Source: Candidatus Levybacteria bacterium RIFCSPHIGHO2_01_FULL_40_16
Lineage (GTDB): Bacteria > Patescibacteriota > Microgenomatia > Levybacterales > UBA12049
Assembly: GCA_001783805.1 (NCBI GenBank)
Contig: MFNS01000001.1
Coordinates: 649 to 64,648 of the forward strand
Reading direction: 5' to 3'
Length of the DNA: 64,000 nt
Below, piece by piece: positions 3,387 to 47,927 of this stretch. Under the pieces are notes generated by a model. The model made no database searches. It was not told the DNA's origin and was given only the letters and a program-made list of their open reading frames with translations. The stretch's first letter is position 1, and every line of letters begins with the position of its first letter. The translations under genes were made by a program, and so were the position numbers.

Positions 3387-4625
3387 ATGACTAGAGTTAG
3401 AATTGCGCCCAGTCCTACCGGAATTCCGCACATTGGGAATACGAGAACCGCACTCTTCAATTATCTTTTCGCCAAGCATACTAAGGGTAAATTTATAGTG
3501 CGTGTTGAGGATACTGATCGGGCCAGAATTGTTCTCGGGGCAAAAGAGGCAATTTTCGAAATTCTTACTTGGCTTGGTATTTCCTGGGATGAGGAATATG
3601 TTCAATCGGAAAGAAAAAGTATTTACAAGGAGCAAGTAGGAAATCTTGTTAAAAAGGGATTGGCTTATAAAGACGAAGGAGCGGTAAGGTTTAAGGTGCC
3701 GGCTAATCGGGAAATATCTTGGACAGACGCAATCGGGAATAAAAAAATTTCTTTTAAAACAGATGTCATAGAGGATTTTGTAATTCTTAAATCCGACGGG
3801 TTTCCAACCTACCATTTGGCAAACGTGGTTGATGATTATTTAATGAAAATTTCTCATATAATCCGCGGGGACGAATGGATTTCTTCGACTCCGAAACATA
3901 TTTTGCTTTATGAAGCTTTTGGCTGGGATCTGCCGGTGTTTGCTCATCTGCCTGTTATTTTGGGACCGGATAAGACCAAATTATCAAAACGTCACGGGGC
4001 ACAATCGGTTTTAGATTTAAAAAACGATGGATATTTGAAAGAAGCAATTGTAAATTTTATGGCACTGTTGGGATGGAGCCATCCGGAAGGAAAAGAAATA
4101 TTTTCTCTGACGGAAATAATAAAAACATTTGATTTAAAAGATGTCGGAACAGTTGCACCGATTTTTGATTTACAAAAATTAACTTGGATGAATGGGGAGT
4201 ACATTAGACAAACTCAAAACTCAAAACTCAAAACTCAAATCTGTGAATTTTATGAGAAAGATAAGAATGTATTAGAGTTTTTAAAAAACAATTCAACAAA
4301 ATTAAATCTAATATTGGATTTGGCTAAGACGCGAATGAAAACCTTAAAGGAGTTTAAAGATTTGGTTATCCCAAGAATACCGAAATTATCCCTTGAGAAA
4401 AAAAATATCGCCAAAGCTCTGTCGGAAAATTTTAGCGAAATTAAAAATTGGAATTCCGAGACAATCCTTTCAGCAATGAAAAAAGCTCTAATCTTGCATA
4501 AAGCAAAAGGCAGCGTTTTGTACGAGATTGCAACAGGCTTCGAGAAGGGACTGCCTCTTCCCGATTCTTTAGAAATTTTAGGTAAAGAAAAAACCTTACA
4601 GAGGATTAAGAAAGTAGCTCAATAA
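3387..4625 (+). CDS. gltX: Glutamyl-tRNA synthetase (short/truncated-C-terminus type)
   Basis: HIGH motif 'PSPTGIPHIGNTRTA' and KMSKS motif 'KLSKRHG'. Typical GluRS catalytic core. 412 aa. Confidence 0.9.
   Translation: MTRVRIAPSPTGIPHIGNTRTALFNYLFAKHTKGKFIVRVEDTDRARIVLGAKEAIFEILTWLGISWDEEYVQSERKSIYKEQVGNLVKKGLAYKDEGAVRFKVPANREISWTDAIGNKKISFKTDVIEDFVILKSDGFPTYHLANVVDDYLMKISHIIRGDEWISSTPKHILLYEAFGWDLPVFAHLPVILGPDKTKLSKRHGAQSVLDLKNDGYLKEAIVNFMALLGWSHPEGKEIFSLTEIIKTFDLKDVGTVAPIFDLQKLTWMNGEYIRQTQNSKLKTQICEFYEKDKNVLEFLKNNSTKLNLILDLAKTRMKTLKEFKDLVIPRIPKLSLEKKNIAKALSENFSEIKNWNSETILSAMKKALILHKAKGSVLYEIATGFEKGLPLPDSLEILGKEKTLQRIKKVAQ
4210..4237 (+). repeat. Heptanucleotide tandem repeat (AAACTCA)x4 plus a degenerate fifth unit, in-frame inside gltX
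   Basis: Direct reading: ACAAACTCAAAACTCAAAACTCAAAACTCAAATCTG. It encodes QTQNSKLKTQ. Confidence 0.9.
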
Positions 4626-4628
4626 TTT

Positions 4629-5228
4629 ATGACGGGGCTTGCTAAAGCGATATCGTTTTTTTTGGGTCCGGTTTTTACTCTTCTCCCAATACCTTTTATT
4701 CTAGTTGCAAGATTTAGCCAGGATTATAAATATGTTTTAAAATGGTCTATATTTTCTTATGCTTTTATCCTAGCTGTTGTTTTGTTCGTGATTGCAGGAG
4801 TGATGCTTGGAGTTTTTTCTAATTTTGATGTTTCCAAAAGAGAACAAAGACCGCTTCTTTTTTCATTTTCCGCGTTCGTGATATTTTGTTATTTATTATC
4901 TCTGCTTGTTTTGCGCGGGCCAAAAATTCTTTTTTTGGCTATCTTTGCTGTAATTTTTGGTCTGGTAACTTTTATAATTGCTAACAAGTGGATCAAAGCA
5001 AGCATTCATGTTGCAACAGCCACAGCTGTCCTGCTATTAATAGGAATTATTTATAAAGGATATTTTTTTCTGCTTCTTATCCTTATTCCTCTTCTTGCCT
5101 GGGCACGCGTCAAGACTAAAGAACATTCTGCAACAGAAACAATAATTGGCAGTATCTTAGGGATCATGGTAACATTAACCGTATATCTTATCAGTAAGCA
5201 ATTTCTTTTGGGGATGATTTATAATTAA
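4629..5228 (+). CDS. Hypothetical polytopic membrane protein (about 5 TM helices)
   Basis: Uninterrupted ORF. Hydrophobic segments throughout. Lies between gltX and dgkA. No confident family assignment. Confidence 0.5.
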   Translation: MTGLAKAISFFLGPVFTLLPIPFILVARFSQDYKYVLKWSIFSYAFILAVVLFVIAGVMLGVFSNFDVSKREQRPLLFSFSAFVIFCYLLSLLVLRGPKILFLAIFAVIFGLVTFIIANKWIKASIHVATATAVLLLIGIIYKGYFFLLLILIPLLAWARVKTKEHSATETIIGSILGIMVTLTVYLISKQFLLGMIYN

Positions 5229-5231
5229 AAT

Positions 5232-5600
5232 ATGGATTACGATAAGTCTTTATCAAATTCTTTTAAATATGCGCTTGAAGGTGTTTGGCACGCACTGAAA
5301 AATAATCGCAACTTAAGAATAGATTTTATTGCAGCTTTGATTGTAATTGTTTTAAGCGTAGTTTTTCACACCAATCCATATGAAAAAGGTGTTTTGGGAA
5401 TTACGATCTTATTCGTTATTTGTTCCGAAATGATTAATACTTCGCTGGAGGAAATGGTGAATCTTATTACACAGGAACACAGAAGAGAGGCAAAAATCGC
5501 CAAAGATGTAGCCGCGGGAATGGTTCTGATCGCAGCGATAGGATCTGTGATTGTTGGGATTTTTATATTTTCCCCGTATATATCTAAATTACTTTATTAA
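5232..5600 (+). CDS. dgkA: Diacylglycerol/undecaprenol kinase (DgkA family)
   Basis: ~120 aa with 3 TM helices. Conserved 'EEMVNLITQEHRREAKIAKDVAAGMVL' segment typical of prokaryotic DAGK. Confidence 0.75.
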   Translation: MDYDKSLSNSFKYALEGVWHALKNNRNLRIDFIAALIVIVLSVVFHTNPYEKGVLGITILFVICSEMINTSLEEMVNLITQEHRREAKIAKDVAAGMVLIAAIGSVIVGIFIFSPYISKLLY

Positions 5601-6215: not shown

Positions 6216-6548
6216 TTAAATTGTCCGAATTGTAAGCAGAATATTGCTACGTCAGATTATTTTTGTCCGAACTGCGGAAAAAAACTAAAAGATAAACCTT
6301 TATCTACAACAATTGCCAGGCAAATATTCGTTTATTCTTTTAGTCTTTTACTTCCGCCTTTGGGACTTTGGCCGGCAATCAGATATTTAAAACAAGAATC
6401 GGATAAAGCAAGAATGATTGGTTTTATTGCGATTGTTTTGACAATAATCTCTACAGCTGTAGAACTCTGGCTTGGTCTGGGTTTTATAAATACATTTAAT
6501 CAACAATTTAATCAACAGCTCAACAGCAATCTTAATTTGTACCGTTAA
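6204..6548 (+). CDS. Zinc-ribbon domain membrane protein
   Basis: N-terminal CPNC...x12...CPNC zinc ribbon followed by two hydrophobic helices. Confidence 0.5.
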   Translation: MEPQLNCPNCKQNIATSDYFCPNCGKKLKDKPLSTTIARQIFVYSFSLLLPPLGLWPAIRYLKQESDKARMIGFIAIVLTIISTAVELWLGLGFINTFNQQFNQQLNSNLNLYR

Positions 6549-6786
6549 TTAAAGCTTCTTTTTGCGCGTGGGTGAATTTTTTTATTTCAATTTCCCGTTT
6601 CAAAGCTTTAGAAGGGGTAGGTTGGGTTTCTTGATAAACCAATTCAAATGATTTAAAGCTCCGCAGGTATTTTGATGATCTACCTGTTTTATTTTTATGC
6701 TCATTTAATCTCTTTTTCAGATTATTTGTCTGTCCGGTGTAAAGAGTATTTGAAGATGTGCGGAGAATATAGACTGTATAAACCAC
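6532..6786 (-). CDS. GIY-YIG domain protein (UPF0213/YhbQ-like small nuclease-fold protein)
   Basis: 'VYTVYILRTSSNTLYTGQTNNLKKRLNEH' matches the GIY-(x10)-YTG...R...EH signature. 84 aa. Confidence 0.7.
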   Translation of the reverse strand: MVYTVYILRTSSNTLYTGQTNNLKKRLNEHKNKTGRSSKYLRSFKSFELVYQETQPTPSKALKREIEIKKFTHAQKEALINGTN

Positions 6787-16512: not shown

Positions 16513-17268
16513 ATGAGTAAAGTCTTTCTTTCCGTAGTAATCCCTTCTTACGACGAAATGGCCAATCTGCAAAAGGGCGTTTTGGATAAGGTCGAACATT
16601 TTTTGAGCAAAGAAAAGTTTCCCTATGAGGTAATCATTGTGGATGACGGATCCGGGGACGGAAGCATTGAATTCGTAAGGCGGTTTATTGAAGAAAATCC
16701 TAACTTTAGGCTAATAGAAAATTCTCATTTAGGAAAAGCAGGAGCAGTAACAGCGGGAGTGCTTAAGTCTCAAGGCGATTATGTGCTTTTTTCCGATATG
16801 GATCAGGCAACCCCAATTGAAGAATTGGATAAGCTTTTGCCATATTTTGATCAGGATTTTGAGGTAGTTATCGGTTCCAGGAGTACGGTAAGAAAGGGAG
16901 CGCCGTTTATCCGTCAATTTGTTTCCCATACGGCGATTATTGCCCGCAAACTAATTGTCGGCCTGCCGGAAATTTCCGATACCCAATGCGGATTTAAAGC
17001 GTTTAAAAAAGAAGCCGCGAGAAAACTATTTACACGCATTGATAAATTACATAACGGTTTCAAAAAGATCTCGGGAAGCTCTGTAAGTTCGGGATTCGAT
17101 GTGGAATTGTTATTCATCGCGGAAAAATTAGGCTACAAAATTAAAGAAGTGCCGGTGAATTGGCTCTATGTTGAGACCAGAAGGGTCAGTCCGATTAAAG
17201 ATTCAGTCGAAGGAATGATGGATCTTTTAAAAATAAAAGTTAAAGCGATGAAGGGGGAATACGATTGA
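16513..17268 (+). CDS. GT2 polyprenyl-phosphate sugar synthase (Dpm1/GtrB-like)
   Basis: 'LSVVIPSYDE', 'IIVDDGSGDGS', 'DMDQATP' (DxD-type). ~250 aa. The ORF-track TTG start at 16477 lies inside the promoter, so ATG 16513 is preferred. Confidence 0.8.
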   Translation: MSKVFLSVVIPSYDEMANLQKGVLDKVEHFLSKEKFPYEVIIVDDGSGDGSIEFVRRFIEENPNFRLIENSHLGKAGAVTAGVLKSQGDYVLFSDMDQATPIEELDKLLPYFDQDFEVVIGSRSTVRKGAPFIRQFVSHTAIIARKLIVGLPEISDTQCGFKAFKKEAARKLFTRIDKLHNGFKKISGSSVSSGFDVELLFIAEKLGYKIKEVPVNWLYVETRRVSPIKDSVEGMMDLLKIKVKAMKGEYD

Positions 17269-19974: not shown

Positions 19975-20595
19975 AACCGTTGCATACTCCTTTATTACGG
20001 TAACATTGAACCAATTTTTATTTTCCACCAGAAGCTTATCCTTCTCTCCATAATCAAAATAACCATTCGCTATTCTCATTTTGCTGTTATCCATCAGGAA
20101 AATTATTTTTATAGTTTTTGAGTCTTCCCGATAGATCAAACTATTTTTATCTGCGAATATAAAATTTTCTTTGGAAAATTGTTTGAGATCTACTATTTTA
20201 TTTAAATCTGATTCCGTTGTTAGAATATCCAGACTATTAGCCAGAGGAGAGGAGAAAACCAAAAAGGTCAAGCTGAGCTGTTTTTCGTCGTATTTTATTC
20301 CTATTTTCTCATTTGACTGCTGAACTGAAGATTTTTCAATTCCTGTCCTTGAAAAGATAAAATATCCGGGTGAGTAAAATTCTCTGAATTGCCAATATTC
20401 TTGCGGATCAATGGATCCTCTCTGCTTGGTAGCGTTGATAAACTCGTTTAGAATAGCCTGCCTTTTGAAAGGGAAGACTTGGCTGGATATTTTTGGAGAA
20501 AGGAAAGTAAACAAGCTGATGATAGTAATTAAAATTAGGGCAAAGAAGGATAGATCGCTTCTAATAAGCCTTAAAATGCTTTGAGTTTTGCTCAT
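19900..20595 (-). CDS. Hypothetical protein with N-terminal TM anchor, antisense within the plus-strand cluster
   Basis: 231-aa ORF. Overlaps the 3' end of the 18460 gene by 75 nt and the 20581 start by 15 nt. No homology clues. Confidence 0.35.
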   Translation of the reverse strand: MSKTQSILRLIRSDLSFFALILITIISLFTFLSPKISSQVFPFKRQAILNEFINATKQRGSIDPQEYWQFREFYSPGYFIFSRTGIEKSSVQQSNEKIGIKYDEKQLSLTFLVFSSPLANSLDILTTESDLNKIVDLKQFSKENFIFADKNSLIYREDSKTIKIIFLMDNSKMRIANGYFDYGEKDKLLVENKNWFNVTVIKEYATVLNLIDFIYREIGSVFSLFYFQNLC

Positions 20596-33865: not shown

Positions 33866-34942
33866 ATGAGGATTGGGATCTACGATCCGTATCTGGATAC
33901 CTTGAGTGGAGGAGAAAAATATATGCTATCAGCGGCATCATGTTTGGCTAAGGAACATAAAGTATTTATTTTTTGGGATAAGGATAAAGAAACCGAAATA
34001 AAGCAAACGGCCGTCAAAAAACTAGGAATAAATTTATCTTCCGTTGAACTTTATAGGAACATATTTGATAAGAATGTCTCTTCGACAACTCGTTTTATTG
34101 AATCTGGGAAGTTTGATGCGATAATCTATTTAAGCGATGGAAGTATTCCGCTTGTTCGAACAAAATTATACGTCCATTTTCAGTTCCCAATAGAGTGGGT
34201 TGATGGCAATTCATTGAGAACTAAATTTAAATTAATTTTTGTTAAAGACATATTCTGCAATTCTTATTTCACAAAGGATCTTATAGACAAAAAACTACAT
34301 GTCAATAGTAAAGTTATTTATCCACCCGTTGTTCTCAATAGGGATAAAAAAATCAAAAAAGAAAATATTATCCTACATGTCGGTAGACTTTCTGTGAATG
34401 AGAGCGGAGTAAATTATAAAAAACAAGATATTATGATTAAGGCTTTTAAAAAATTGATAGATGGAGGTTTGAAAAATTGGGAGTTTGTGATTGTGATAGG
34501 AGTTAAGGGTGAAGATAGAACAGCTCTTAATAAACTTAAGGAAATGTCCAAAGGATATCTGATTAAAATTCTAGATAATCCTTCGAACAAAACTCTTTGG
34601 GAAAATTATTCAAAGGCAAGAATTTATTGGCATGCGACCGGATACGGTGAAAATCTGCAAAAATATCCCGAAAGAGCAGAGCATTTTGGGATTTCCACGG
34701 TTGAAGCAATGGGGTCGGGTTGTGTGCCGGTGGTATTCAATGCAGGAGGACAAAAAGAAATAGTTGAAGATAATAAGAGTGGATATCTGTGCAACGGCAT
34801 GGAAGATTTTATAGTAAAAACTAATGGATTAATTGGGAATGAAGATTTACTAAGGAGAATGTCTTTGGAATCAATAAAAAGATCGGATGTATTTAGTTTA
34901 GATAAGTTCTGCAGCAGCCTAAAAACGTTATTAACTAAATGA
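33866..34942 (+). CDS. GT4 (GT-B fold) glycosyltransferase
   Basis: C-terminal 'EHFGISTVEAMGSGCVPVVFNAGGQKEIV' EX7E-type motif. Confidence 0.8.
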   Translation: MRIGIYDPYLDTLSGGEKYMLSAASCLAKEHKVFIFWDKDKETEIKQTAVKKLGINLSSVELYRNIFDKNVSSTTRFIESGKFDAIIYLSDGSIPLVRTKLYVHFQFPIEWVDGNSLRTKFKLIFVKDIFCNSYFTKDLIDKKLHVNSKVIYPPVVLNRDKKIKKENIILHVGRLSVNESGVNYKKQDIMIKAFKKLIDGGLKNWEFVIVIGVKGEDRTALNKLKEMSKGYLIKILDNPSNKTLWENYSKARIYWHATGYGENLQKYPERAEHFGISTVEAMGSGCVPVVFNAGGQKEIVEDNKSGYLCNGMEDFIVKTNGLIGNEDLLRRMSLESIKRSDVFSLDKFCSSLKTLLTK

Positions 34943-37185
34943 AAAGAATATTGCCGTATTTATCTATAATTTTACTGGCTTTTGTGTTTTTTTGGCAATT
35001 TTTTATTAAGGGATTGTTTCCAATTCCGGCAGATACAATTGTTGGGCTTTACTATCCGTTTAGAGATTTATATGCAAAAGATTATCCAAATGGTATTCCG
35101 TTCAAAAATTTTTTAATAACAGATCCTGTTAGACAGCAATATCCTTGGCGGAAATTAGCAATCTCAGCGGAAAAAAATTTCGAATTACCGTTATGGAATC
35201 CATATAATTTTTCAGGAACTCCGCTTTTGGCTAATTTTCAGTCAGCCTCTCTTTATCCGCTTAATATTTTATTTTTTTTAATGCCATTTGATGTTGGATG
35301 GAGTTTGGTAATCTTTCTGGGACCATTATTAAGTGGGCTATTTTTATTTCTATATCTTAACAATTTTAAACTTAATAAATGGGCGAGTTTATTGGGAGCA
35401 TTTGCGTTTGCTTTCTCGGGTTTTTTCATATCCTGGTTAGAATGGGGAACGATAACTCATGTTGGATTATGGTTACCGTTAATTCTTCTTTCAATTGATA
35501 AACTTGTATCAAGTATCAAGTATCAAGTATTAAGTATAAGAAATAAAAAGCTTGTTGCATGGATTATTATTTATTTATTCTCTTTAACGTCTTCATTTTT
35601 TGCAGGCCATCTCCAAATATTTTTCTACCTTTTTATTCTTTCGTGGGTTTATTTTTTAGCTCGATGGGTTCAATGCAAAGCACAGAAAAAGACACTATTT
35701 TTATTCATAATTCTTAATTCATTATTCATAATTCTTGCTTCTGTTCAGTGGATTCCAACTTTTCAATTTATTTCTTTATCAGCTCGAAATATAGATGTAG
35801 TAAATCTTAACAATTCCGGCTGGTTTATTCCCTGGCAGCATCTTACTCAATTTGTCGTTCCCGATTTCTTTGGTAATCCTACGACACTTAATTATTGGGG
35901 AGTATGGAATTATGGAGAGCTTGTTGGCTATATCGGAATAATTCCTTTTATTTTGGCATTATTTGCCATGTTTTTCAGGAGAGATAAGAAAACTCTGTTT
36001 TTTGGAACAATCTTTTTCATGGGTATAATTTTTGCTTTCCCCACCTTTTTTGCAAAAATTCCATATCTTCTTAAAATTCCCTTTCTTAGTACTGCGCAAC
36101 CGACGCGTTTAATATTCATAATAGATTTTGCTTTGGCTGTTTTATCCGCTTTGGGATTTGACTATCTGCTAAAAACAAAAAATAAAAAGACAATAATTTA
36201 CCCTTTGAGTTTCCTTCTAGTTATTTTGGTAAGTCTTTGGATCTTTATTCCTAAAGAGCACCTAGCGGTTATAAAAAGCAATTTAATATTCCCCACTCTT
36301 CTTTTTACATTTTCTTTAATTTTATTTATTGTCCTAACAATTTTTCAAAATAAAAAGTTTATCACGATAACGTGTCTGGCTATATTAATAGTTACCGCGT
36401 TTGATTTATTACGTTTTGGTTGGAAATTTACACCGTTTACTAATAATAATTATCTTTTTTCCATTACTCAATCTATCTCATTTTTACAGAAGCAAAAAGG
36501 GCAGTTTAGAATTGCAGCTACAGATCCGAAAATACTTCCGCCTAATTTCTCCAGTATCTATTTGATTCAGAGCGTTGATGGATATGATCCTCTTTATCTT
36601 CAGCGCTATGGAGAATTAATTATAGCAATGGAACGTAATAGACCAGACATTGAGCCACCATTTGGGTTCAATAGAATTATCACCCCTCATAACTATGACT
36701 CAAGAATAATGGACTTGTTGGGAGTTAAATATGTCTTAAGTCTTTCTGCACTTAATTCTCCAAAGCTCACTAAAGTGTTTCAAGAGGGGCAGACGCTGAT
36801 TTATGAGAACAAGAATGTCATGCCTAGAACATTTTTCGTAAAGATGGTAAAAACAGTTAAGAATAAAGAAGATGCTATGAAAATTCTTTTTGATTCTTCG
36901 ATTGATTTAGTTCAGACAGGAATTGTGGAAAATCAAAACGAAGAATTAGCCGCAAGCTGGTCGGTCGGATCGACGAATATAACTCGATATTCTGCAAATA
37001 AAATAATTATTGATACGATAAACGAAGGTACGGGATTTCTTATTTTAACTGACACATTTTATCCAACATGGAGGGTGTCCATAGATGGTAAATCAGCAAA
37101 GTTATATATAGTGGATTATAATTTCAGAGGAGCCGTTGTGCCGTCGGGAGAACACAGTGTAGAATTTTATAATACTTTATTTTAA
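34939..37185 (+). CDS. YfhO-family GT-C membrane glycosyltransferase
   Basis: 748 aa. 'DPVRQQYPWRKL' (YfhO D..QY.P motif). Many TM helices. C-terminal 'FYPTWRVSIDGKSAKL' domain. Confidence 0.7.
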   Translation: MKRILPYLSIILLAFVFFWQFFIKGLFPIPADTIVGLYYPFRDLYAKDYPNGIPFKNFLITDPVRQQYPWRKLAISAEKNFELPLWNPYNFSGTPLLANFQSASLYPLNILFFLMPFDVGWSLVIFLGPLLSGLFLFLYLNNFKLNKWASLLGAFAFAFSGFFISWLEWGTITHVGLWLPLILLSIDKLVSSIKYQVLSIRNKKLVAWIIIYLFSLTSSFFAGHLQIFFYLFILSWVYFLARWVQCKAQKKTLFLFIILNSLFIILASVQWIPTFQFISLSARNIDVVNLNNSGWFIPWQHLTQFVVPDFFGNPTTLNYWGVWNYGELVGYIGIIPFILALFAMFFRRDKKTLFFGTIFFMGIIFAFPTFFAKIPYLLKIPFLSTAQPTRLIFIIDFALAVLSALGFDYLLKTKNKKTIIYPLSFLLVILVSLWIFIPKEHLAVIKSNLIFPTLLFTFSLILFIVLTIFQNKKFITITCLAILIVTAFDLLRFGWKFTPFTNNNYLFSITQSISFLQKQKGQFRIAATDPKILPPNFSSIYLIQSVDGYDPLYLQRYGELIIAMERNRPDIEPPFGFNRIITPHNYDSRIMDLLGVKYVLSLSALNSPKLTKVFQEGQTLIYENKNVMPRTFFVKMVKTVKNKEDAMKILFDSSIDLVQTGIVENQNEELAASWSVGSTNITRYSANKIIIDTINEGTGFLILTDTFYPTWRVSIDGKSAKLYIVDYNFRGAVVPSGEHSVEFYNTLF
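35504..35538 (+). repeat. Degenerate heptanucleotide tandem repeat TTGTATC-AAGTATC-AAGTATC-AAGTATT-AAGTATA inside the YfhO-family CDS
   Basis: Direct reading. It encodes KLVSSIKYQVLSIRNKK. Confidence 0.85.
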
Positions 37186-39065: not shown

Positions 39066-40703
39066 ATGAAGAAAATATTAAATTGGAAACTTGGCTTAGC
39101 ATTAATTATTTTTCTCGCTGCCTTCTTAAGGTTATGGAAATTAGGCAATGTACCAAGCGGGATACCGGATGATGAAGCATATTATGTCTATAACGCTTAT
39201 AGCATTTGGTATACGGGAAAAGATATTCTAGGAAATTTCCTACCTCTCTCGTTTAACTCTCATTCCTCAATGTCTCCGGTAGTTATTTATGTAACCGCTC
39301 CTTTTGTAGGGATAATGGGTCTTAGTGCCTTTTCAGGAAGATTGCCTGCGGCACTTGCGAGCATCGGGTCGGTCTTTCTGCTATTCTTGTTGGTAAAAAA
39401 TATTTTTAAAGATAAAAGAATAGCATTATTTAGCTCTTTACTGTTCGCAATTTCCCCCTGGGCGCTCCAAATAGGAAGAGGAGCAATTCTGGATACGGAC
39501 TTCGCCTTATTCTTCTTGCTGCTTGGAATCTACGTTTTTATTGCAAGAATTGATAGTCGAAAATTTTTATGGTCTCTTATTCCTTTCGCAATTGCTTTTT
39601 ATAGTTATCACGCAACCAAAGTCTTTTTTGTTTTTTTAATACCCGTTTTAATATTTTTCTTTAGGGAAAAATTATTAATAAGGAAAAAAGAAACAGCGTT
39701 TTTTTTGATAGGATGTTTGTTGTTAATAATATCCTTCTTATTTATAATTAAAACACAAAAAGTTACTAGGCAGGACAATGTCTTCTTGCTTAACGGTCCC
39801 GCAGCTACTACTCAAGTTAATTGGGAAAGGCAATATAATACGGCTCCATGGATACTACGGGTTATTTTTAGCAATAAACCATTATATTATCTGAAAGCAA
39901 TTAGAGAAAATTATCTTAAAGCTTTTTCTCCTGAATTTTTATTTTTATCGGGAGAAGGAGGTACTCCTTCACAAATAGTAAACATCTATTATAGGGGGGA
40001 GTTGTACATCATTGAACTGCCATTATTGCTTCTTGGAATTTACACTCTTTTTAAAAATAAAGATAAATTTTCAAGAAATTTTCTAGTAACATTATTATTG
40101 ATAAGTGCTTTACCTTCTACATTTACTCTTGATAGGAATTTCGTAAACAGAGACATAATGATGCTGCCAATATTGTTAATAATAGTTGCTTGTGGGCTGA
40201 CGTACTTGTTGGAACGAGTAGCATTATATAAAAAAATATACAGATACATTTTTATATCTGTTTTTGTTTTGATTTATTTATTTTTATTTATAGGGTATCT
40301 TTATCAATATTATTATAGGTGGACGGTATATGGGTCGGAAGCATGGGGAACAAGCTCTAAGGAATTAGTAGAATTTGTATCGAAAGTAAAAGGAGAGTAT
40401 GAGAATGTGTATATAAGTAATTCTTATAGAAATTTCCTAATGCAATATGCTGTCTTTGAAAAGATTGATCCAAGAATAGTGCAAAAGGCTTGGAACACTA
40501 ATCCAATTAAAATTTATAATATTACTATGCTTCTGGAATGCTTAAACAACGGAGTAGGGATAGTAAAAGATTTTATTCCCCCAAAAACGCTTTATATTTA
40601 CTCGGCGAGTGATTGTAAGTATAGTTCTAGTACGCCAACGGCAAGAATAATCGACAAAGGTGAATTACTTCACGTAATTTGGGATATATATGAAAATAAG
40701 TAG
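39066..40703 (+). CDS. PMT/ArnT-family GT-C glycosyltransferase (tandem paralog 1 of 4)
   Basis: 'PDDEAYYVYNAYSIWYTGKDILGNFLPLSF' DE-loop. Polytopic. 545 aa. Confidence 0.75.
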   Translation: MKKILNWKLGLALIIFLAAFLRLWKLGNVPSGIPDDEAYYVYNAYSIWYTGKDILGNFLPLSFNSHSSMSPVVIYVTAPFVGIMGLSAFSGRLPAALASIGSVFLLFLLVKNIFKDKRIALFSSLLFAISPWALQIGRGAILDTDFALFFLLLGIYVFIARIDSRKFLWSLIPFAIAFYSYHATKVFFVFLIPVLIFFFREKLLIRKKETAFFLIGCLLLIISFLFIIKTQKVTRQDNVFLLNGPAATTQVNWERQYNTAPWILRVIFSNKPLYYLKAIRENYLKAFSPEFLFLSGEGGTPSQIVNIYYRGELYIIELPLLLLGIYTLFKNKDKFSRNFLVTLLLISALPSTFTLDRNFVNRDIMMLPILLIIVACGLTYLLERVALYKKIYRYIFISVFVLIYLFLFIGYLYQYYYRWTVYGSEAWGTSSKELVEFVSKVKGEYENVYISNSYRNFLMQYAVFEKIDPRIVQKAWNTNPIKIYNITMLLECLNNGVGIVKDFIPPKTLYIYSASDCKYSSSTPTARIIDKGELLHVIWDIYENK

Positions 40704-42318
40704 GTATTTAAACAAAAATATAATTCTATTTTTTATAGTTTTAATTGCTTTTTTCTTAAGGATTTATGCTTTGGATAAAATTCCGGATAGTCTTAATCCT
40801 GACGAAGCGGCAATAGGCTATACTTCTTATTCATTTTTAATGTCGGGAGCAGATGAGCATGGTAAATTTTTACCTTTATCTACGCAATCTTTTGGCGACT
40901 GGAAATTATCTCTTTATTCATACATTGGAATTCTGCCGGTAGCGTTGTTTGGCTTAAATGAATTTTCTGTAAGATCTGTAAGCATGCTATCCGGAATTAT
41001 TGGAGTTCTATTAATTTATTTCATAAGCAACACGCTTTTTGGCAAAAGATCAATTGCCTTGCTTTCTGCTTTATTCTTTGCCATTTCTCCTTGGAACATT
41101 TATTTCTCGCGTGCAGCTTATGAGGTTAATTTAGCAACAACGATTTTTCTGGGAGGACTATTGGTTTTCTTAAAATATGTTTATTCTGATAAAAAAAACG
41201 TAAAACTGCTGACGATATCCTTAGTACTTTTTGCTCTTACAATGTTTACTTATCATAGCTATATATTATTTACTCCCGTTTTTGTTTTAGCACTGATAAT
41301 ATTTTTTAGAGAATCAATTTTTATAAATAAAAAATCCTATTTATCAATCACAATTTTTATTATTTTGAGTATTATTTCTATCTTTAGTGCCTCTTCAGGA
41401 GGTAATAAGTTATCGACATTGATAATTAATGATAGAAATATAATTTATGAGCGGGTAGAAAAATTAAGAGGAGATAATGCTCTGAAAAATCTTCTTTTTG
41501 AAAAGCTATTGTTAAATAAATATTTTGGTGTTTCTTATCAAGTTGCACAAAATTATATTAATTCTTTTTCTCCAAGTTTTCTTTTTGATAAAGGAGGAGA
41601 AAAATTGGTACATAATATCGGAGCGTTTGGTAATATATATATATTTGACGCCTTATTCCTTTTAGCCGGTTTTGCCGGATTATTTTGGAATAGAGAGAAA
41701 TCCCTAAGATTGCTTATTCTTTGGTTAATTGTTGCGCCAATATCTTCTGCTATAACTAAAGATGCTCCTAACTCAACCCGCTTATTTGTTTTGATGCCTC
41801 TTTTTGTGCTGGTTGCGTCCTATGGCGCTTATCAAATTTTCGTTTTTTTGAAAAAAAACACAGTTATAAACCTTGCTATAAAAGGATTATTAATTTTCCT
41901 TTTCCTATTAAATGTGTTGTTTTTTCTAGACGTCTATTTTGTCCATTTCAACGTACAAAGAGCCAGATTTTGGCATTTTGGATATCGTGAAGCAGTAAAA
42001 TTAACCGATAAATACTCCACATATAACGTAGCAATGCGGGGACCGGAAAATTTTCCTTACATATATTTTTTGTTTTACGAAAAATATAATCCTTATCAAT
42101 TCAGGAAAGAGGTGACTTATTATCCTCCAACCTCCGAGGGGTTTTATTATGTAAAAAGTTTTGGAAGATATCAATTTGTCGACAAAATCGATTACTCGCA
42201 CCTTGCAAAAAACACAATCTATATAGACGATACCCGTTTGGATGATAAAAAACATTCAATATTTCTACCGTCTGGTGAGCCCATTCTTGGCTACTATATA
42301 GTAGGAAATAATAAATGA
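40690..42318 (+). CDS. PMT/ArnT-family GT-C glycosyltransferase (tandem paralog 2 of 4)
   Basis: 'NPDEAAIGYTSYSFLMSGADEHGKFLPLS'. 542 aa. Contains an A9 homopolymer at ~41861. Confidence 0.75.
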   Translation: MKISRYLNKNIILFFIVLIAFFLRIYALDKIPDSLNPDEAAIGYTSYSFLMSGADEHGKFLPLSTQSFGDWKLSLYSYIGILPVALFGLNEFSVRSVSMLSGIIGVLLIYFISNTLFGKRSIALLSALFFAISPWNIYFSRAAYEVNLATTIFLGGLLVFLKYVYSDKKNVKLLTISLVLFALTMFTYHSYILFTPVFVLALIIFFRESIFINKKSYLSITIFIILSIISIFSASSGGNKLSTLIINDRNIIYERVEKLRGDNALKNLLFEKLLLNKYFGVSYQVAQNYINSFSPSFLFDKGGEKLVHNIGAFGNIYIFDALFLLAGFAGLFWNREKSLRLLILWLIVAPISSAITKDAPNSTRLFVLMPLFVLVASYGAYQIFVFLKKNTVINLAIKGLLIFLFLLNVLFFLDVYFVHFNVQRARFWHFGYREAVKLTDKYSTYNVAMRGPENFPYIYFLFYEKYNPYQFRKEVTYYPPTSEGFYYVKSFGRYQFVDKIDYSHLAKNTIYIDDTRLDDKKHSIFLPSGEPILGYYIVGNNK

Positions 42319-43934
42319 AGAGACAATATCTAATTTTAATATTAATAATTCTATTGGCAGCTTTTCTAAGATTTTGGCAATTGGGTGAAAATCCCCCCTC
42401 GTTAACCTGGGATGAAGCAGCATGGGGATACAATGCTTATTCTTTGGGGATAGATGGAAAAGATGAATTTGGAAGATTTTTGCCGCTTAACTATTTAGAG
42501 TCGTTTGGTGATTTCAAACCACCGATGTATGCATACTTAGATATTATTCCCGTTAAGCTGTTTGGGTTGAATGAATTTGCAACAAGATTTCCTTCGGCAT
42601 TTTTTGGAGTATTGACAGTCCTAATCACTTATTTTTTAACAAAAAGAATTTTTTGGAATTCCAGATCAAGAGAAACGTACGCTTTACTTTCCGCTCTTTT
42701 TCTGGCAATTTCACCTTGGTATATTTTGTTGTCGCGAGCTGCATTTGAGGCAAATGTGGCGAATTTTTTTATAGTTTTTGGAGTTTTTGCATTTTTGGAA
42801 GGAGTGTTGAATAAAAAATGGCTTCTAGTCTTATCGGCAATTTCCTTCGCGCTTTCTTTTTACACATTTAACACGGCAAGGGTTGTTTCTCCGATTATGG
42901 TTATTTTACTTGCTATTATATTTAGGAAAAATCTCTGGAAAATAAAAAAAACAGTTATTCTCTCGGCAATTATTGGTTTTTTGGTTTTTTTGCCTACCTT
43001 CGGGTTTCTGCTAAGTCCGCAGGCGAGCCTAAGGTTTCAAGAAGTTAATATTTTTTCCGATACGGCAATCATTAAAGAGTCAAATCAAGAAATCGTCAAT
43101 GACAATAACGCTTGGTGGTCAAAGATAATCCACAATAGAAGATTTCTATATGGACTTGATTATCTAAAACACTATTTTGACAATTTTAATCCGGGGTTCT
43201 TATTTATAACAGGGGATGGTAACCCAAAGTTTTCTACACAAACAGTCGGGCAAATGTATGTCTGGGATATAATATTCTTTGTTTCCGGTTTAGTTTTTTT
43301 ATTCAAAAAAAAGGAGGGTAATTGGTGGATTATTCCTTCGTGGCTTTTGATAGGAATTATACCGGCTGCTTTGGCCAAAGAAACTCCTCATGCCTTAAGG
43401 ATTGAATCCTCCTTGCCTACATTTCAAATTATCGTAGCGTATGGCTTTATTCAATTAATAGATAAAATTAATAAATACAAAAAAACAATTATTTATTGCC
43501 TACTACTTCCTTTGTTTGTCAATTTTTTCTATTTTTTTCATGATTATTTTTATAGTTATAAGTATGAATATTCCGGTGAATGGCAGTATGGCTATAAACA
43601 ATCAATTGATTATGTAAAGTCAGTAGAGGATAATTATGATTTCATACAGGCATCAAATTATTTAGGCAGAGCTTATGTCTACTACCTTTTTTATACAAAA
43701 ACAGATCCGAATTATTTTAGAGAGACTGTAAATATAAGTAGAGACATATTTGGTTTCGTTTCGGTTAACAGTTTTGGGAAGTATATTTTTCCTCAAAATT
43801 TTAATCATAGCCTAAGCGCTACGAAGAAAGTTTTATATATAGATAATTCAAAAAATCTGCCGGGCAACGCTAAGGTATTGAAAAGATTTTACCTTCTGAA
43901 CGGCGAAGAAAAATTAGTCGCATACACAATATGA
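42315..43934 (+). CDS. PMT/ArnT-family GT-C glycosyltransferase (tandem paralog 3 of 4)
   Basis: 'LTWDEAAWGYNAYSLGIDGKDEFGRFLPLNY'. 539 aa. Confidence 0.75.
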   Translation: MKRQYLILILIILLAAFLRFWQLGENPPSLTWDEAAWGYNAYSLGIDGKDEFGRFLPLNYLESFGDFKPPMYAYLDIIPVKLFGLNEFATRFPSAFFGVLTVLITYFLTKRIFWNSRSRETYALLSALFLAISPWYILLSRAAFEANVANFFIVFGVFAFLEGVLNKKWLLVLSAISFALSFYTFNTARVVSPIMVILLAIIFRKNLWKIKKTVILSAIIGFLVFLPTFGFLLSPQASLRFQEVNIFSDTAIIKESNQEIVNDNNAWWSKIIHNRRFLYGLDYLKHYFDNFNPGFLFITGDGNPKFSTQTVGQMYVWDIIFFVSGLVFLFKKKEGNWWIIPSWLLIGIIPAALAKETPHALRIESSLPTFQIIVAYGFIQLIDKINKYKKTIIYCLLLPLFVNFFYFFHDYFYSYKYEYSGEWQYGYKQSIDYVKSVEDNYDFIQASNYLGRAYVYYLFYTKTDPNYFRETVNISRDIFGFVSVNSFGKYIFPQNFNHSLSATKKVLYIDNSKNLPGNAKVLKRFYLLNGEEKLVAYTI

Positions 43935-45586
43935 AAAAAATTATTTGGATATTATTAGCTGCAATTATTTTGGGAGGCGCATTGAGATTGTGGCAGCTTG
44001 GAAACATTCCTCCTTCTCCTGATTGGGATGAAGCTTCTCTAGGATATGATGCATATTCAATCCTCCAAACCGGGAAGGACCAATTTGGAGAGTTCTTGCC
44101 GGTTGTTCTTCGCTCTTTTAATGATTATAAGCCTGCATTCTACGCATATCTAGCCATACCTTCAATCTTTGTGTTTGGTTTAAATACTCTTGCAGTTAGG
44201 TTCCCTTCGGCTATTTTTGGAATATTATCAATCATTGCTGTATTTTATTTGGTAAAAGAAATATTTGAAAATTATAAATATAAAGATTATCTGGCCGTTA
44301 TTTCCAGTTTTTTACTGGCAATTTCTCCTTTGTCCATTCAATTTTCAAGGGTGGGGTTTGAGTCAAATGTCGGGACCGCCTTTAATATTTTTGCAGCTCT
44401 TTTTTTTCTGAAAGGTCTTAAAAAGCCATGGCTTTTGTCTCTTTCGGCAATTTGTGCGGGACTTGCTATCTACACTTATCAAAGCGAAAAAGTTTTCACA
44501 CCTTTACTTTTGCTCGTAATGGTTTTGCTGTTCAGGAAAAAACTATTTTCAATAAATAAAAAATATCTAGCTTCAGCTTTTGTTATTGGAGCGATAATTG
44601 TTCTGTCAATGATTTTTTATACATTTACGGACAAGTCTTCCTTAGAAAGACTGCGGGGAACGAGTGTTTTTTCTTCCCAGACAGAACTTCTTAAAGCAAA
44701 TTTAAGAAAATTGGATAGGGATCAGCAAAACAATGATAAGTTGGGATTATTTCTGGATAATAGGAGAATTGTTTATGCCAAGACTATTCTTCAAAGTTAT
44801 TTAACTCATTTTGATTTAAACTGGCTATTTATTCAGGGTGATATCGCCAGGCATCATGCTCATGGAATGGGGATAATGTATCTGTTTGAGTTTCCGCTTT
44901 TACTTTTGGGGATTTACAGCCTGCTATTCGGGCAATTCGATAGGAGAACAAAATTACTTATATTTTTATGGGTTCTAATTACTCCTATTCCGGCTTCGGT
45001 TACAATGGGAGTTCCTAGCGCGGTCAGGACGCTTAATTTTTTGCCGGCAGTTCAAATACTAACTGCTTTAGGAGTTTTGTCGGCAATAAAACTTGTATCA
45101 GATATTGAATATCAAGTATTAGGTTTACGATTAAAATATCTTATTTTTTTCTTTTCTTTTTGTTTTTTCATATTTAATTTTTCATATTATCTTAACCAAT
45201 ATTTTGTCCAATCAAATTATTATGACTCGGCCTACTGGCAATATGGCTATAAACAGGCAGTTGATGAGTCTTTGAAATTGCAAGATAAATATCAGAAAAT
45301 AATTGTATCGAACAATGAGTCAATGAACCAGTCATATATATATTTCTTATTTTATTTAAGATACCCGCCTCAAGATTATCAGAAAATTGTCAATAATAAA
45401 CCTAAAGGCACTTTTGATAATTCCTTTGGAGAGTATATTTTTAAGAAAATTGATTGGGGAAAAGACTCTTTAATAAAAAATGTTTTATATATTGCAAATC
45501 CAAACGAAATTCCGGATAGGGTACAAACAATAAAAACCATTTATAATTTAAATGGAACACCGGCAATTAAGATCGTCGGCACGTAG
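43931..45586 (+). CDS. PMT/ArnT-family GT-C glycosyltransferase (tandem paralog 4 of 4)
   Basis: 'PDWDEASLGYDAYSILQTGKDQFGEFLPVVL'. 551 aa. Carries the shared nucleotide module at 45089-45121. Confidence 0.75.
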   Translation: MKKIIWILLAAIILGGALRLWQLGNIPPSPDWDEASLGYDAYSILQTGKDQFGEFLPVVLRSFNDYKPAFYAYLAIPSIFVFGLNTLAVRFPSAIFGILSIIAVFYLVKEIFENYKYKDYLAVISSFLLAISPLSIQFSRVGFESNVGTAFNIFAALFFLKGLKKPWLLSLSAICAGLAIYTYQSEKVFTPLLLLVMVLLFRKKLFSINKKYLASAFVIGAIIVLSMIFYTFTDKSSLERLRGTSVFSSQTELLKANLRKLDRDQQNNDKLGLFLDNRRIVYAKTILQSYLTHFDLNWLFIQGDIARHHAHGMGIMYLFEFPLLLLGIYSLLFGQFDRRTKLLIFLWVLITPIPASVTMGVPSAVRTLNFLPAVQILTALGVLSAIKLVSDIEYQVLGLRLKYLIFFFSFCFFIFNFSYYLNQYFVQSNYYDSAYWQYGYKQAVDESLKLQDKYQKIIVSNNESMNQSYIYFLFYLRYPPQDYQKIVNNKPKGTFDNSFGEYIFKKIDWGKDSLIKNVLYIANPNEIPDRVQTIKTIYNLNGTPAIKIVGT

Positions 45587-45594
45587 GGGAACAT

Positions 45595-47097
45595 ATGGGA
45601 AGATTTATAAAAAAAGAGCTGTTGATATTGTATCTAATTATTTTTGTGGGTTTATTTTTAAGAGTGCAGGGAATTTTTACAAATTCTTTTGCTTTTACTT
45701 ATGATGTCGGGCGGGATATGCTTGCTGTTAGCGACATTGTCCATTTGGGTAAAATTCTCCTTATCGGTCAAACGACCGGGCTTCCCGGATTATTCTATGG
45801 GCCGTGGTGGTATTATATCCTAATTCCTCCATTTGTTTTGGCTTCCGGAGATCCGGCCGGCGTAGCATTATTTATAGCTTTAAGCGGGGCTGTAACTGTC
45901 CTTTTGGGATTTAAATTGGGGAAAGGTATTGGGGGAACAGTTCTTGGTTTAGTATTTGCTTCTTTTCTATCTTTTTCTCCTGTAATGGTTGGGCTAACAA
46001 GTCAGATTTGGAACCCCAACCTTATACCTCTTTTTATAATCATTTTTATGTACTGCCTTCATCGGATTTTCGTTTTCTTGGAGAAGAAAAAGGGTATAGG
46101 AGTAGCGTATCTCTTGTTTCTAGGCTTACTTTTGGGACTTATCTTAGATCTTGAAGTTGTCTTTGGTCTGCTTTTTCTTGTTGGCGCAATTATTTCAATA
46201 ATTTTATTTTTAGGTAAACGAATTAAATTGAAAGATTACCTATTTATTATTTTAGGATTTTTCATAATTATGTTTCCCCGCATAGTATTTGAATTAAGAC
46301 ATAATTTTTTAATGACTAATGCCCTGATGTCATTTGTTGGGAATACTTTGTCATCGTCAAATGGGAGTCAAAGCTCTTTTGCGCCTGTTAATAGTTTTAT
46401 TAGATTGTATGGGTTGTGGACGGATACTATTTCGATGGGAAACGTATTTTGGGGTTTTGTTTTATTATTTTTATTAGCATTTGGTTTAATTTCATTACAT
46501 AAAAAAATGGAAAAAGAGAAAAAGTTTTTTTTATTAATTAATTTAATAATTTTAACAACGTTTCTGATTGGTCTTAGTTTTTTTCCAGGAGCCATTTGGA
46601 GTCATTATATTGTAGGAATTCCGGTTCTTTACATTTTCATTCTAAGTATTGCAGTTTCGAAACTTCTACATCTTAAGAAAACAAGATTCATTATTGTTTT
46701 GGCATTTGTTATTCTATTGGCGTCATATGTGAATCCAATACGAATAATAAGTGAATACCAAAAGCCATTATGGGAAGGGGACGCGTCCGTGTATAGAAAT
46801 CAACTTGTAATTGTAGACTATATTTATAAAGAGGCTCAGGGAAAAGAGTTTAAATATGTAGTTTATACGCCGCCGGTTCACGATTACACATACAAGTATC
46901 TTTTTAAATGGTATGGTCTGAATAAATATAATTATTTACCAAGTAGCAATTCTCGTCTTGCATATTTTATCCTTGAACCGGATTTGCAATATCCCTCAAG
47001 ACTTACGGATTGGTTAAGATTAAGGGAAAAGGATGGCAGAATAATAAAAGCAGAAAAATTTAAAAGCGGAATTATTGTTCAGACGAGAATCCATTAA
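45595..47097 (+). CDS. Polytopic membrane protein with C-terminal soluble domain, putative GT-C-like
   Basis: 500 aa, ~11 TM helices. No confident family assignment. Confidence 0.5.
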   Translation: MGRFIKKELLILYLIIFVGLFLRVQGIFTNSFAFTYDVGRDMLAVSDIVHLGKILLIGQTTGLPGLFYGPWWYYILIPPFVLASGDPAGVALFIALSGAVTVLLGFKLGKGIGGTVLGLVFASFLSFSPVMVGLTSQIWNPNLIPLFIIIFMYCLHRIFVFLEKKKGIGVAYLLFLGLLLGLILDLEVVFGLLFLVGAIISIILFLGKRIKLKDYLFIILGFFIIMFPRIVFELRHNFLMTNALMSFVGNTLSSSNGSQSSFAPVNSFIRLYGLWTDTISMGNVFWGFVLLFLLAFGLISLHKKMEKEKKFFLLINLIILTTFLIGLSFFPGAIWSHYIVGIPVLYIFILSIAVSKLLHLKKTRFIIVLAFVILLASYVNPIRIISEYQKPLWEGDASVYRNQLVIVDYIYKEAQGKEFKYVVYTPPVHDYTYKYLFKWYGLNKYNYLPSSNSRLAYFILEPDLQYPSRLTDWLRLREKDGRIIKAEKFKSGIIVQTRIH

Positions 47098-47113
47098 ATT
47101 TCCTCATTTTGGT

Positions 47114-47142
47114 TTGTAAATAGGTTATTTTATTGTTATGAT
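47114..47142 (+). promoter_or_regulatory. Promoter TTGTAA-N17-TATGAT placed 8 nt before the ATG at 47151 (leaderless or near-leaderless)
   Basis: Direct reading: ttgtaa ataggttattttattgt tatgat agttcagt ATG. Confidence 0.35.
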
Positions 47143-47150
47143 AGTTCAGT

Positions 47151-47927
47151 ATGGCAAGGATGACCCTTTCTGTTGTCTTGGCGACCCATAATGAGGAAGA
47201 AAATTTACCCGGATGTTTGGATTCTGTTCGCAATTTGGCAGATGAAATAATTATTGTTGATGGATCATCTATGGATAGGACAGTAGAAATCGCCAAAAAA
47301 TACGGCGCAAAAATAAAAATAACCACAAATAAGCCAAATTTTCATATCAATAAGCAAATGGCAATTGATATGGCAACCGGTGATTGGATTCTGCAATTGG
47401 ACGCCGATGAAAAGGTTTCGCCTGAACTTGTTCAGGAAATTAAATCCGAAATCCGAAATCCGAAATCCGAAATAAATGGTTATTGGATGCCGAGAAAAAA
47501 TTGGTTTTTGGGGAGATTCTTAATGAAAGGCGGTCAGTATCCTGATTATACTTTGCGGCTTTATCGCAAGGGCAAAGGACGCCTTCCTCAGGCACACGTT
47601 CATGAGCAGGCGGAGGTTATGGGTCGTGTTGAATATTTAAAACAAGCTCTCCTGCATTATCCATATAAAAATTTTGCGTCTTATCTTTTGAAGTGGAATA
47701 GATACAATGATCTTTTGGTAATGCAAATTAAAGAAAGTTTGGAAAATAAAAATTTTATTGCGAAAATTGGTTATGGGATTGGGTATTCGATAATTAAACC
47801 GGCGCATTGGTTCTTAACAACCTACATAAGGCATAAGGGATTTGTGGATTCGTGGTCCGGATTCATTTTCTCTCTTTTCTCCGCGTTAAGATTTCCTGTA
47901 TCATATATTAGATACCTATCCTTATGA
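47151..47927 (+). CDS. GT2 glycosyltransferase (Leloir-type)
   Basis: 'LSVVLATHNEEENLPGCL', 'IIIVDGSSMDRT', 'DADE'. Confidence 0.8.
   Translation: MARMTLSVVLATHNEEENLPGCLDSVRNLADEIIIVDGSSMDRTVEIAKKYGAKIKITTNKPNFHINKQMAIDMATGDWILQLDADEKVSPELVQEIKSEIRNPKSEINGYWMPRKNWFLGRFLMKGGQYPDYTLRLYRKGKGRLPQAHVHEQAEVMGRVEYLKQALLHYPYKNFASYLLKWNRYNDLLVMQIKESLENKNFIAKIGYGIGYSIIKPAHWFLTTYIRHKGFVDSWSGFIFSLFSALRFPVSYIRYLSL
47442..47469 (+). repeat. Heptanucleotide tandem repeat (AAATCCG)x4 in-frame inside the GT2 CDS
   Basis: Direct reading: GAAATTAAATCCGAAATCCGAAATCCGAAATCCGAAATAAATGG. It encodes KSEIRNPKSEI. Confidence 0.9.

Follow-up and report, generated by a model that had tools for sequence, protein, structure and literature searches.

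Heptanucleotide arrays inside genes of Candidatus Levybacteria look like fixed, frame-filtered repeats rather than on/off switches

Introduction

Heptanucleotide repeats are the commonest long simple sequence repeats (SSRs) of prokaryotes; little is understood of them, and they are believed to be for the most part kept out of coding DNA. As the survey of Mrazek et al. (2007) is relayed in PMC4679880 and PMC4692102, heptanucleotides are the most abundant class of long SSR among units of 5-11 nt, and a link was proposed between the preference for 7 nt and how much DNA the polymerase contacts. The present analysis concerns three heptanucleotide arrays that lie within protein-coding genes of a 64,000-nt stretch of Candidatus Levybacteria bacterium RIFCSPHIGHO2_01_FULL_40_16 (contig MFNS01000001.1, positions 649 to 64,648), which is referred to as the window. 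The host genes encode a glutamate--tRNA ligase (gltX), a YfhO-family membrane protein (YfhO) and a family-2 glycosyltransferase (GT2). The arrays look like fixed, in-frame results of replication slippage, with three units gained at a time, that turn up repeatedly at the same tolerant sites of the proteins within the lineage, and do not look like on/off switches.

The STRR (short tandemly repeated repetitive) class comprises a few fixed sequences, CCCCAGT, TTGGTCA and CAACAGT, dispersed genome-wide. Rickettsia palindromic elements (RPEs) are dispersed palindromes, about 100-150 bp long, which occupy surface positions in housekeeping proteins, aminoacyl-tRNA synthetases among them. Ogata et al., in 2000, reportedly described them as in-frame selfish insertions in protein genes.

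Heptanucleotide arrays in the window

The three host genes and their arrays are all on the forward (+) strand, and each open reading frame (ORF) stays open across its array. The gltX gene (3387-4625; 412 aa, PF00749 and PF19269) contains AGA|C(AAACTCA)x4 AAATCT at 4210-4242, which in register is (AAAACTC)x4 and encodes QTQNSKLKTQI, residues 275-285. This array is perfect as (AAACTCA)x4.3 over 4210-4239, and one mismatch takes the extension to 4242. The YfhO gene (34939-37185; 748 aa, PF09586) contains three GTATCAA units followed by GTATTAA and GTATAAG at 35503-35539, encoding (L)VSSIKYQVLSI. Read as (GTATCAA)x4.6, the tract at 35506-35537 has 96% matches with one mismatch; its perfect run covers 25 nt, or some 3.6 units (35506-35530), longer than the 2 perfect units given in the initial annotation of this DNA. 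The GT2 gene (47151-47927; 258 aa, PF00535) contains a perfect (AAATCCG)x4.6 at 47442-47473, which encodes KSEIRNPKSE(I), residues 98-108.

The three tracts that the initial annotation had placed inside coding sequences, gltX included, are thus all present, with coordinates that were exact or a few bases off. That one unit gained or lost shifts the reading frame is also correct, as 7 is not a multiple of 3. The remark that all three units begin with AA is uninformative because it depends on the chosen rotation of the unit. The units are A-rich on the coding strand and otherwise unrelated to one another, and the three peptides have a 7-residue period in which one 7-nt unit is read through all three frames. 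Three runs of at least 14 consecutive matches at lag 7 occur in the window, as compared with 0.0 in 100 dinucleotide shuffles. The other periods from 4 to 12 give 0-1 such runs each, and perfect runs of at least 25 nt are found with period 7 only. The three arrays are real and far above chance.

Array sites in orthologous proteins

The array sites were compared in sets of 120 orthologues of each of gltX, GT2 and YfhO. Under a strict criterion, agreement with a heptamer read-out at 9 or more of 10 residues, read-outs were found in 20/120 gltX, 26/120 GT2 and 26/120 YfhO orthologues, representing 3, 10 and 10 different units, respectively, and in 0/150 random segments.

In GT2, the array segment is situated between the DADE motif helix and NGYW, and read-outs of at least 10 different units are observed among the 120 orthologues. 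These include KSEIRNPKSE (AAATCCG), KSKIQNPKSE (AAATCCA), IGNWKLEIGN (AAATTGG) and KFEIRNS (AAATTCG). Arrays of AAAATTG read ENCKLKIENC, in which the TGA stop of the unit is swapped for TGC (Cys), as seen on DNA in relative L161. The DNA of the array-free relative L172 reads AAAATTGG|GAATTCC (protein ...EKIGNSVNGYW), and that of L168 reads AAAATTGG (AAATTGG)x3 AAATTCC (protein ...DKIGNWKLEIGNSVNGYW), a difference of exactly +21 nt. At the protein level the step is EKIGN[WKLEIGN]SVNGYW, or +7 aa. In the AlphaFold2 model of GT2, window residues 98-108 run through the end of helix 91-101 into loop 102-107.

The unexpanded relatives of YfhO read ...DKIVSSIKDKK..., encoded in L173 by GTATCAA GTATTAA AGAT. 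Compared with L173, the window array (GTATCAA x3 GTATTAA GTATAAG) is longer by exactly 21 nt, or 7 aa; the step in array-bearing orthologues is VSSIK[YQVLSIK]NKK (window: VSSIKYQVLSIRNKK). Other orthologues carry other units and longer arrays in the same loop, such as SKLKSQNSKL, KSKIKNQKSK and ISNIKYQISN. Comparison of these sequences indicates that the YfhO array is an insertion, in what appears to be a loop of variable length among orthologues. Orthologue DNA without an array shows a 2-unit proto-repeat for both GT2 and YfhO. We also note that one member of the YfhO cluster (P0009) is without 23 residues (VPDFFGNPTTLNYWGVWNYGEL), window residues 306-328, and is otherwise near-identical, with one substitution beside the gap. 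This gap, which has nothing to do with the heptamer array, reflects either a polymorphic in-frame deletion or an artefact of assembly.

The site in gltX directly follows the conserved W-x-N-G-x-Y-I-R motif, and two groups of orthologues are distinguished there. The array-free group reads R-M-M-D-N-K-x-L-K-S-x-L, and the array-bearing group shows the three-frame heptamer read-outs RQTQNSKLKTQI, RKSQISNLKSQI and RKAQSSKLKAQI. The DNA of array-bearing orthologues takes the form AGA (AAANCTC)x4 AAAT, where N is A in the window, L164 and L165, G in L166 and T in L167; the (AAAGCTC)x4 of L166 and the (AAATCTC)x4 of L167 are perfect. The array of L001 has three A-units and one T-unit, the variant unit lying at the array edge. 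Scans of genome and metagenome contigs with gltX, used as a control set, gave mostly distant gltX, with about 10 Levybacteria loci among the matches listed, and also turned up arrays in distant gltX genes among these matches. In gltX genes only 36-44% identical, on metagenome contigs, the arrays occupy the same site in the same register, with the units AAAACTC in L100, AAAGATC in L092 (KTQRSKIKDQI) and ATTACGA in L156 (TTNYELRITI). The unit always includes the codons of a conserved Leu/Ile-Lys/Arg pair; Leu281, invariant in alignment A4, is encoded by the CTC of the unit. The presence of perfect arrays with different units at one site implies that the arrays are homogenised or repeatedly renewed.

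Of the 120 best gltX relatives, most share the length of 412 aa, and the array aligns gap-free to array-free orthologues and to NMPIEKLAELAKPF of the Thermotoga maritima enzyme (2o5r). The alignment indicates that the gltX array is not an insertion and that 21 nt were overwritten, not added. The suggestion that the heptamer tracts are insertions thus holds for GT2 and YfhO, at exactly +21 nt, and fails for gltX, the length of which does not change. In the AlphaFold2 model of gltX (pLDDT 94), residues 275-285 lead from the end of helix 262-275 through a turn of two residues into the beginning of helix 278-288. Array-bearing sequences are scattered in a neighbour-joining gltX tree, yet they share a downstream block, EFY.KDK..LEFLK, which on the sequences compared suggests mosaic exchange among co-occurring lineages. 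Because of this shared block, the tree is compatible both with recurrent origin and with recombination.

Two further gltX sequences deserve mention. P0012, from a 5.3-kb ENA contig, was considered as a close array-free relative (87% identical) and was dropped as a chimera or recombinant: it matches the window gltX (P0001) at 100% identity over about 300 N-terminal alignment columns and P0032, from a different Levybacteria genome, at 100% identity over its C-terminal part, with the switch point close to the array site. L096, with a gltX 42% identical, contains a 32-mer (AAATCCG)x4.6 at a different site (L096:3815-3846, after ...GLCR and before PYVIRL).

Stability of the arrays

Population tests were made at the consensus level, on assembled contigs and cluster proteins. 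The gene adjoining gltX was found on 24 contigs from independent assemblies, in all of which gltX is 412 aa, and the gene adjoining GT2 on 23 contigs, in which GT2 is 258 aa wherever the contig spans the whole gene; the neighbouring proteins are unchanged across both sets. The array is identical in 6/6 contig sequences inspected (2 gltX, 4 GT2). Clusters at 90% identity show the same repeat peptide for all three proteins, the sole exception being one member in which K replaces Q at the edge of the gltX array. No copy-number differences were seen in these contigs and clusters. No out-of-frame alleles were found among the 3 x 120 orthologue products, in a protein search that under-samples truncated products, and the length differences at the array sites are whole codons, +7 aa where traceable. 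In this comparison the fixed changes are of three units (21 nt) only.

A Logan contig of 41 kb (L178:1, SRR3990171_290338) begins inside the GT2 array, at about window position 47446. The assembly probably broke at this point on array k-mers common to co-occurring relatives.

Arrays across the lineage

Further arrays, for which the initial annotation had called for a genome-wide search, were counted in 290 kb of Levybacteria-type DNA, consisting of the window and fetched relatives, with an array defined as 4 or more units that contain no more than 2 mismatches. This DNA contains 17 heptamer arrays, as compared with 1 array for all other periods from 5 to 12 combined. One heptamer array was found in 335 kb of mostly non-CPR (candidate phyla radiation) genomes, and 11 in 620 kb of other metagenome contigs. 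The arrays examined lie in long ORFs, on the coding strand, in 15/15 cases, and their length is constant at about 30-34 nt. Of the perfect lag-7 arrays in the 290 kb, 22 have 2 copies, which is the chance level (expectation 20.4), whereas 2 have 3 copies and 11 have 4; no period other than 7 attains 3 perfect copies. The copy-number spectrum is bimodal, with a 4-copy peak. As in heptamer long SSRs, the arrays are longer than composition expects and predominate among 5-11-nt units (17 vs 1 in the 290 kb).

Decayed arrays are present in the window as well, all on the + strand. A 32-nt array (AAATTCA AAATGCA AAATGTA AAAGTCA AAAT) at 17268-17299 encodes part of the N-terminus of ORF 17265-18455. 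Another 32-nt array (ATTCATA ATTCTTA ATTCATT ATTCATA ATTC) at 35703-35734 falls in the YfhO gene as well, where a membrane segment is predicted, and CTAACAT CTAAAAT CAAAAAT CTAAA at 57217-57242 lies in ORF 57046-57804.

The recJ-like genes just upstream of the gltX neighbourhood contain heptamer arrays at up to three sites in L082, L162, L167 and probably L090 (L082:3350-3392 and 4290-4323; L162:5516-5553; L167:3432-3468 and 3954-3981; L090:4690-4718). AAAAGTC x5 is found around aa 314-332 in L162 and L167 (residue ~327 in L082), and a TACGATT-type array is found near the C-terminus of the recJ-like protein of L167 and in an unannotated 586-aa ORF of L090. A T-rich (GCTATTT)x5 lies inside a PMT_2 membrane-protein gene (L173:19861-19895), so that the arrays are not confined to A-rich hydrophilic segments.

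Proposed mechanism

We consider it likely that the arrays are heptanucleotide SSRs made by slippage at local proto-repeats and filtered by the reading frame at tolerant sites. In this mechanism, slipped-strand misalignment at a proto-repeat of 1-2 imperfect units would start an array inside a gene. Changes of one or two units in either direction would be removed by purifying selection because the 7-nt step shifts the frame. Changes of three units (21 nt, 7 codons) alone would survive, and the arrays would be quantised at about 4-5 units (28-37 nt). From this follow the +21-nt relation, a peak at ~4-5 units (1-2 plus 3) and the lack of out-of-frame alleles. The array would be translated via all three unit frames into a peptide of 7-residue period, and would persist only where almost any hydrophilic sequence is tolerated, namely at helix ends, turns and loops. 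As such sites would be few, the same ones would be hit or kept in many lineages, with units seeded by local codons. The edges would decay through point mutation while the cores remain homogeneous.

The +21-nt expansions of local proto-repeats in GT2 and YfhO point to slippage as the mutational step. Slippage itself is inferred, as are the addition of three units in one event or stepwise, the way in which the cores stay homogeneous and the replacement of 21 nt of gltX at constant length. The initial annotation had also offered a process that leaves heptamer arrays as footprints of insertion or repair. In the general sense this is borne out, as slippage-type expansion in +21-nt steps appears to be at work; the footprint of an inserting and excising element is not. 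A target-site duplication or footprint of 7 or 14 bp was rejected as such, since 14 or 14+18 nt would be out of frame and gltX has no net insertion.

Several observations weigh against slippage filtered by the reading frame. The length of gltX is the same in array-bearing orthologues, array-free orthologues and the T. maritima enzyme, so that an array without length change needs a compensating 21-nt deletion or a length-neutral conversion, neither of which was observed; a 405-aa intermediate was not seen among the orthologues. Simple stepwise slippage does not predict that a proto-repeat of 1-2 units gains three at one go, and in gltX stepwise addition would pass through lethal frameshifts. 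No intermediate copy state was seen, and in an essential gene none could persist. The preference for four units is also described in PMC4692102 for intergenic heptamers of Xanthomonas and Nostoc, where frame cannot be the cause, and the genomes considered here are almost wholly coding, which precludes comparison with intergenic arrays. The 32-mer (AAATCCG)x4.6 in the gltX of L096 is identical to the window GT2 array and occupies an unrelated site, and the AAAATCA array occurs twice in the one recJ-like gene of L082. Finally, related 18-nt inserts are situated exactly between units 2 and 3 of four-unit arrays in two different genes with different units, at approximately L162:10839-10856 (gltX) and L169:1816-1833 (GT2). 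The inserts ACCTGTCCCTAGTGGGGG and ACCTGTTCCCGAAGATGG encode PVPSGG and PVPEDG, respectively, and the gltX protein P0058 carries the same peptide insert. Such a central insert is not predicted by plain slippage.

Alternative explanations

Many of these difficulties are points in favour of a dedicated or mobile process, in which a lineage-specific repair or replication activity writes heptamer patches of ~32 nt, or a selfish in-frame element spreads between genes and genomes. The constant length of about 30-34 nt, the overwriting of gltX without length change, the identical 32-mer in unrelated genes, the two same-unit arrays of one recJ-like gene, the shared downstream block of scattered array-bearing gltX with its suggestion of mosaic exchange, and the related 18-nt insert exactly between units 2 and 3 in two genes all fit it. 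Nevertheless, such a process is unlikely. The units match local ancestral codons (Leu-Lys or Leu-Arg at gltX 281-282, GTATCAA in unexpanded YfhO, AAATTGG in unexpanded GT2), so that the arrays are built from local sequence and not imported; A-rich stop-free heptamers are few, so that recurrence of units is expected; and no associated enzyme was identified. We hold it to be similarly doubtful that a CPR lineage-specific process writes or homogenises ~32-nt, four-unit, in-frame patches and that the arrays are not passive slippage products. If true, this process could overwrite without length change, as in gltX, keep arrays perfect at orthologous sites of essential genes across very deep divergence, and make array centres preferred targets for a small GC-rich insert; it would count as a novel type of mutational mechanism or of in-frame element in the genome. 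Improbable, in turn, is selection of the heptamers as functional nucleic-acid elements, for example as sites on mRNA or ssDNA for cold-shock (Csp) or S1-type OB folds (~7 nt per domain) or for translation pausing at domain boundaries. Perfect arrays at the same site and with the same unit number over 36-100% identical gltX, with the unit changing in concert, would suit this explanation, as would the position of the sites at boundaries of secondary-structure elements or domains, and binding of Csp to heptamer repeats is discussed in PMC4679880. Unrelated units within one genome (AAACTCA, GTATCAA, AAATCCG) leave no single sequence-specific binder, and a sequence-specific binding site was ruled out for this reason. 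Furthermore, arrays are absent from many close orthologues, decayed arrays are common, and the reading frame alone yields the +21-nt pattern and the 4-copy peak.

The classic architecture of phase-variable contingency loci was the first reading given to these tracts. Single-unit gain or loss would switch GT2, YfhO and even gltX on and off in the population. The unit length of 7 nt, not a multiple of 3, and the location of the tracts inside three coding sequences agree with this reading, as do the start of one Logan contig inside the GT2 array and the location of GT2 and YfhO in a cell-envelope glycosylation cluster, the usual setting of contingency genes. GT2 and YfhO would fit the description of a dispensable, surface-type gene; gltX, presumably essential and single-copy, does not fit it. 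Copy-number polymorphism among close genomes was not seen at the consensus level, where the products are full-length in the 24 and 23 contigs, the arrays identical in the six inspected sequences and the repeat peptides alike in the 90%-identity clusters, and the 3 x 120 products read through, only in-frame states being found among the 120 orthologues per gene where OFF alleles would be expected. Each array has only ~4 units, and array position and copy number are kept in orthologues down to 36-59% identity. The full-length products, the identical arrays in 6/6 sequences and the conserved site and copy number thus give phase variation no support, and we regard it as quite improbable. Hardly credible is coincidental low-complexity coding, in which selection on the peptide alone gives repeat-like DNA. 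The encoded segments are indeed rich in Lys, Asn, Ser and Gln, which are common in AT-rich genomes, but the 7-nt periodicity is perfect over 28-32 nt, the peptides change as correlated triplets from a one-base unit change (KTQNSKL, KSQISNL and KAQSSKL, confirmed on DNA), and stop codons are patched.

Inserts in the GT2 loop and genomic setting

The GT2 array loop of relatives also hosts in-frame, GC-rich palindromic inserts (L170:203-1009, L171:240-1088, L161:146-952). The insert of L170, CCGCCTGCC...GGCAGGCG, gives a folded segment of -38 kcal/mol with its flanks included; that of L171 is a nested palindrome of about 75 nt, GTCATTCTGG...CCAGAATGAC, and that of L161 is a 21-nt hairpin with a GCGA loop. 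By analogy, these inserts recall elements of the repetitive extragenic palindromic (REP) or RPE type that are accommodated in frame. When the window was scanned for GC-rich islands, in search of hairpin inserts like those of the relatives, only ordinary coding segments came up.

G+C across the window is 30-43%. All three host proteins are present verbatim in the metagenome-assembled genomes Candidatus Levybacteria bacterium RIFCSPLOWO2_01_FULL_39_24 and RIFCSPHIGHO2_01_FULL_40_16, and the longest contig with these proteins measures 776 kb. Long series of consecutive ORFs of about 480-570 aa each occupy window positions 20581-30863 and 39066-47097, and their equivalents in syntenic relatives are PMT_2/ArnT-like (GT-C) glycosyltransferase paralogues together with PTPS_related proteins. 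The YfhO and GT2 genes sit within the very large envelope-glycosylation cluster formed by these ORFs. A GIY-YIG ORF of 84 aa is called at L165:4404-4658 and uncalled at the same place in L164 (window about 6532-6786), and L162 also contains a GIY-YIG gene at the position homologous to L165:4404-4658. This small ORF may be a homing-endonuclease-like gene.

Implications

With the reading frame acting as a filter, these arrays offer a natural experiment in which 4-copy quantisation and traceable +21-nt events are observed at orthologous sites. A structured segment whose sequence is set by a DNA repeat, read in three frames, can be accommodated even in an aminoacyl-tRNA synthetase. Where the genes of uncultivated bacteria contain non-triplet repeats, calling them phase-variable requires population evidence, and such repeats can break assemblies as well. 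If the pattern is genome-wide in CPR, genic and non-genic copy-number spectra could test the polymerase-contact explanation of the 7-nt preference.

Comparison with known systems

The arrays share with the long SSRs of the Mrazek type, as these are portrayed in the articles that relay the survey, tandem 7-nt units beyond chance, the predominance of 7 among units of 5-11 nt and polymerase slippage as the proposed origin. Those repeats are described as mostly intergenic and from large genomes, and units that are non-multiples of 3 are reported there as rare in coding regions. In contrast, the arrays of this study are all intragenic, in a small CPR genome, in frame, of ~4 units and recurrent at orthologous sites. 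The cyanobacterial STRR of Calothrix and Nostoc are likewise heptamers, and one of them lies inside an RNase P RNA gene at a structurally tolerant position (Vioque 1997, as quoted in PMC4748335). Unlike STRR, the units found here are site-specific, derived from local sequence and translated, and they are not a set of fixed sequences dispersed over the genome.

The GGGNATC repeats of Xanthomonas and Nostoc, in the account given in PMC4692102, have a heptamer unit and a marked preference for four units, and the TAACTGA repeats of Beggiatoaceae and cyanobacteria, as described in PMC4679880, read as a heptapeptide repeat, LSVISYQ, when reversed inside ORFs. According to the same accounts, each consists of one specific unit, is mostly intergenic and regulatory, and occurs in 2 to 43 copies; the rationale of G-quadruplex formation or regulator binding considered for them is inapplicable to the A-rich, variable units described here. 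SSR phase variation in Haemophilus, Neisseria and Campylobacter, with 7-bp repeats in hmw1A and hmw2A among the examples in PMC8262952, also involves a frame-shifting unit and, in part, envelope-glycosylation genes. The present tracts differ in that they are short, that no copy-number polymorphism is seen, that one of the genes is presumably essential and that the orthologues are in frame only.

RPEs provide the likeness of DNA that is not driven by protein function and is tolerated in frame in housekeeping proteins, aminoacyl-tRNA synthetases included. The present arrays differ in being 30-nt local tandem repeats, not palindromic, that match local proto-repeats, although some units recur at unrelated sites; the GC-rich hairpin inserts in the GT2 loop of relatives are a closer analogue of RPEs than the arrays are. 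No literature linking heptamer repeats with CPR or Patescibacteria was found in the library searched. New with respect to all these systems are the intragenic location of the arrays, their quantised copy numbers and their recurrence at orthologous sites in CPR.

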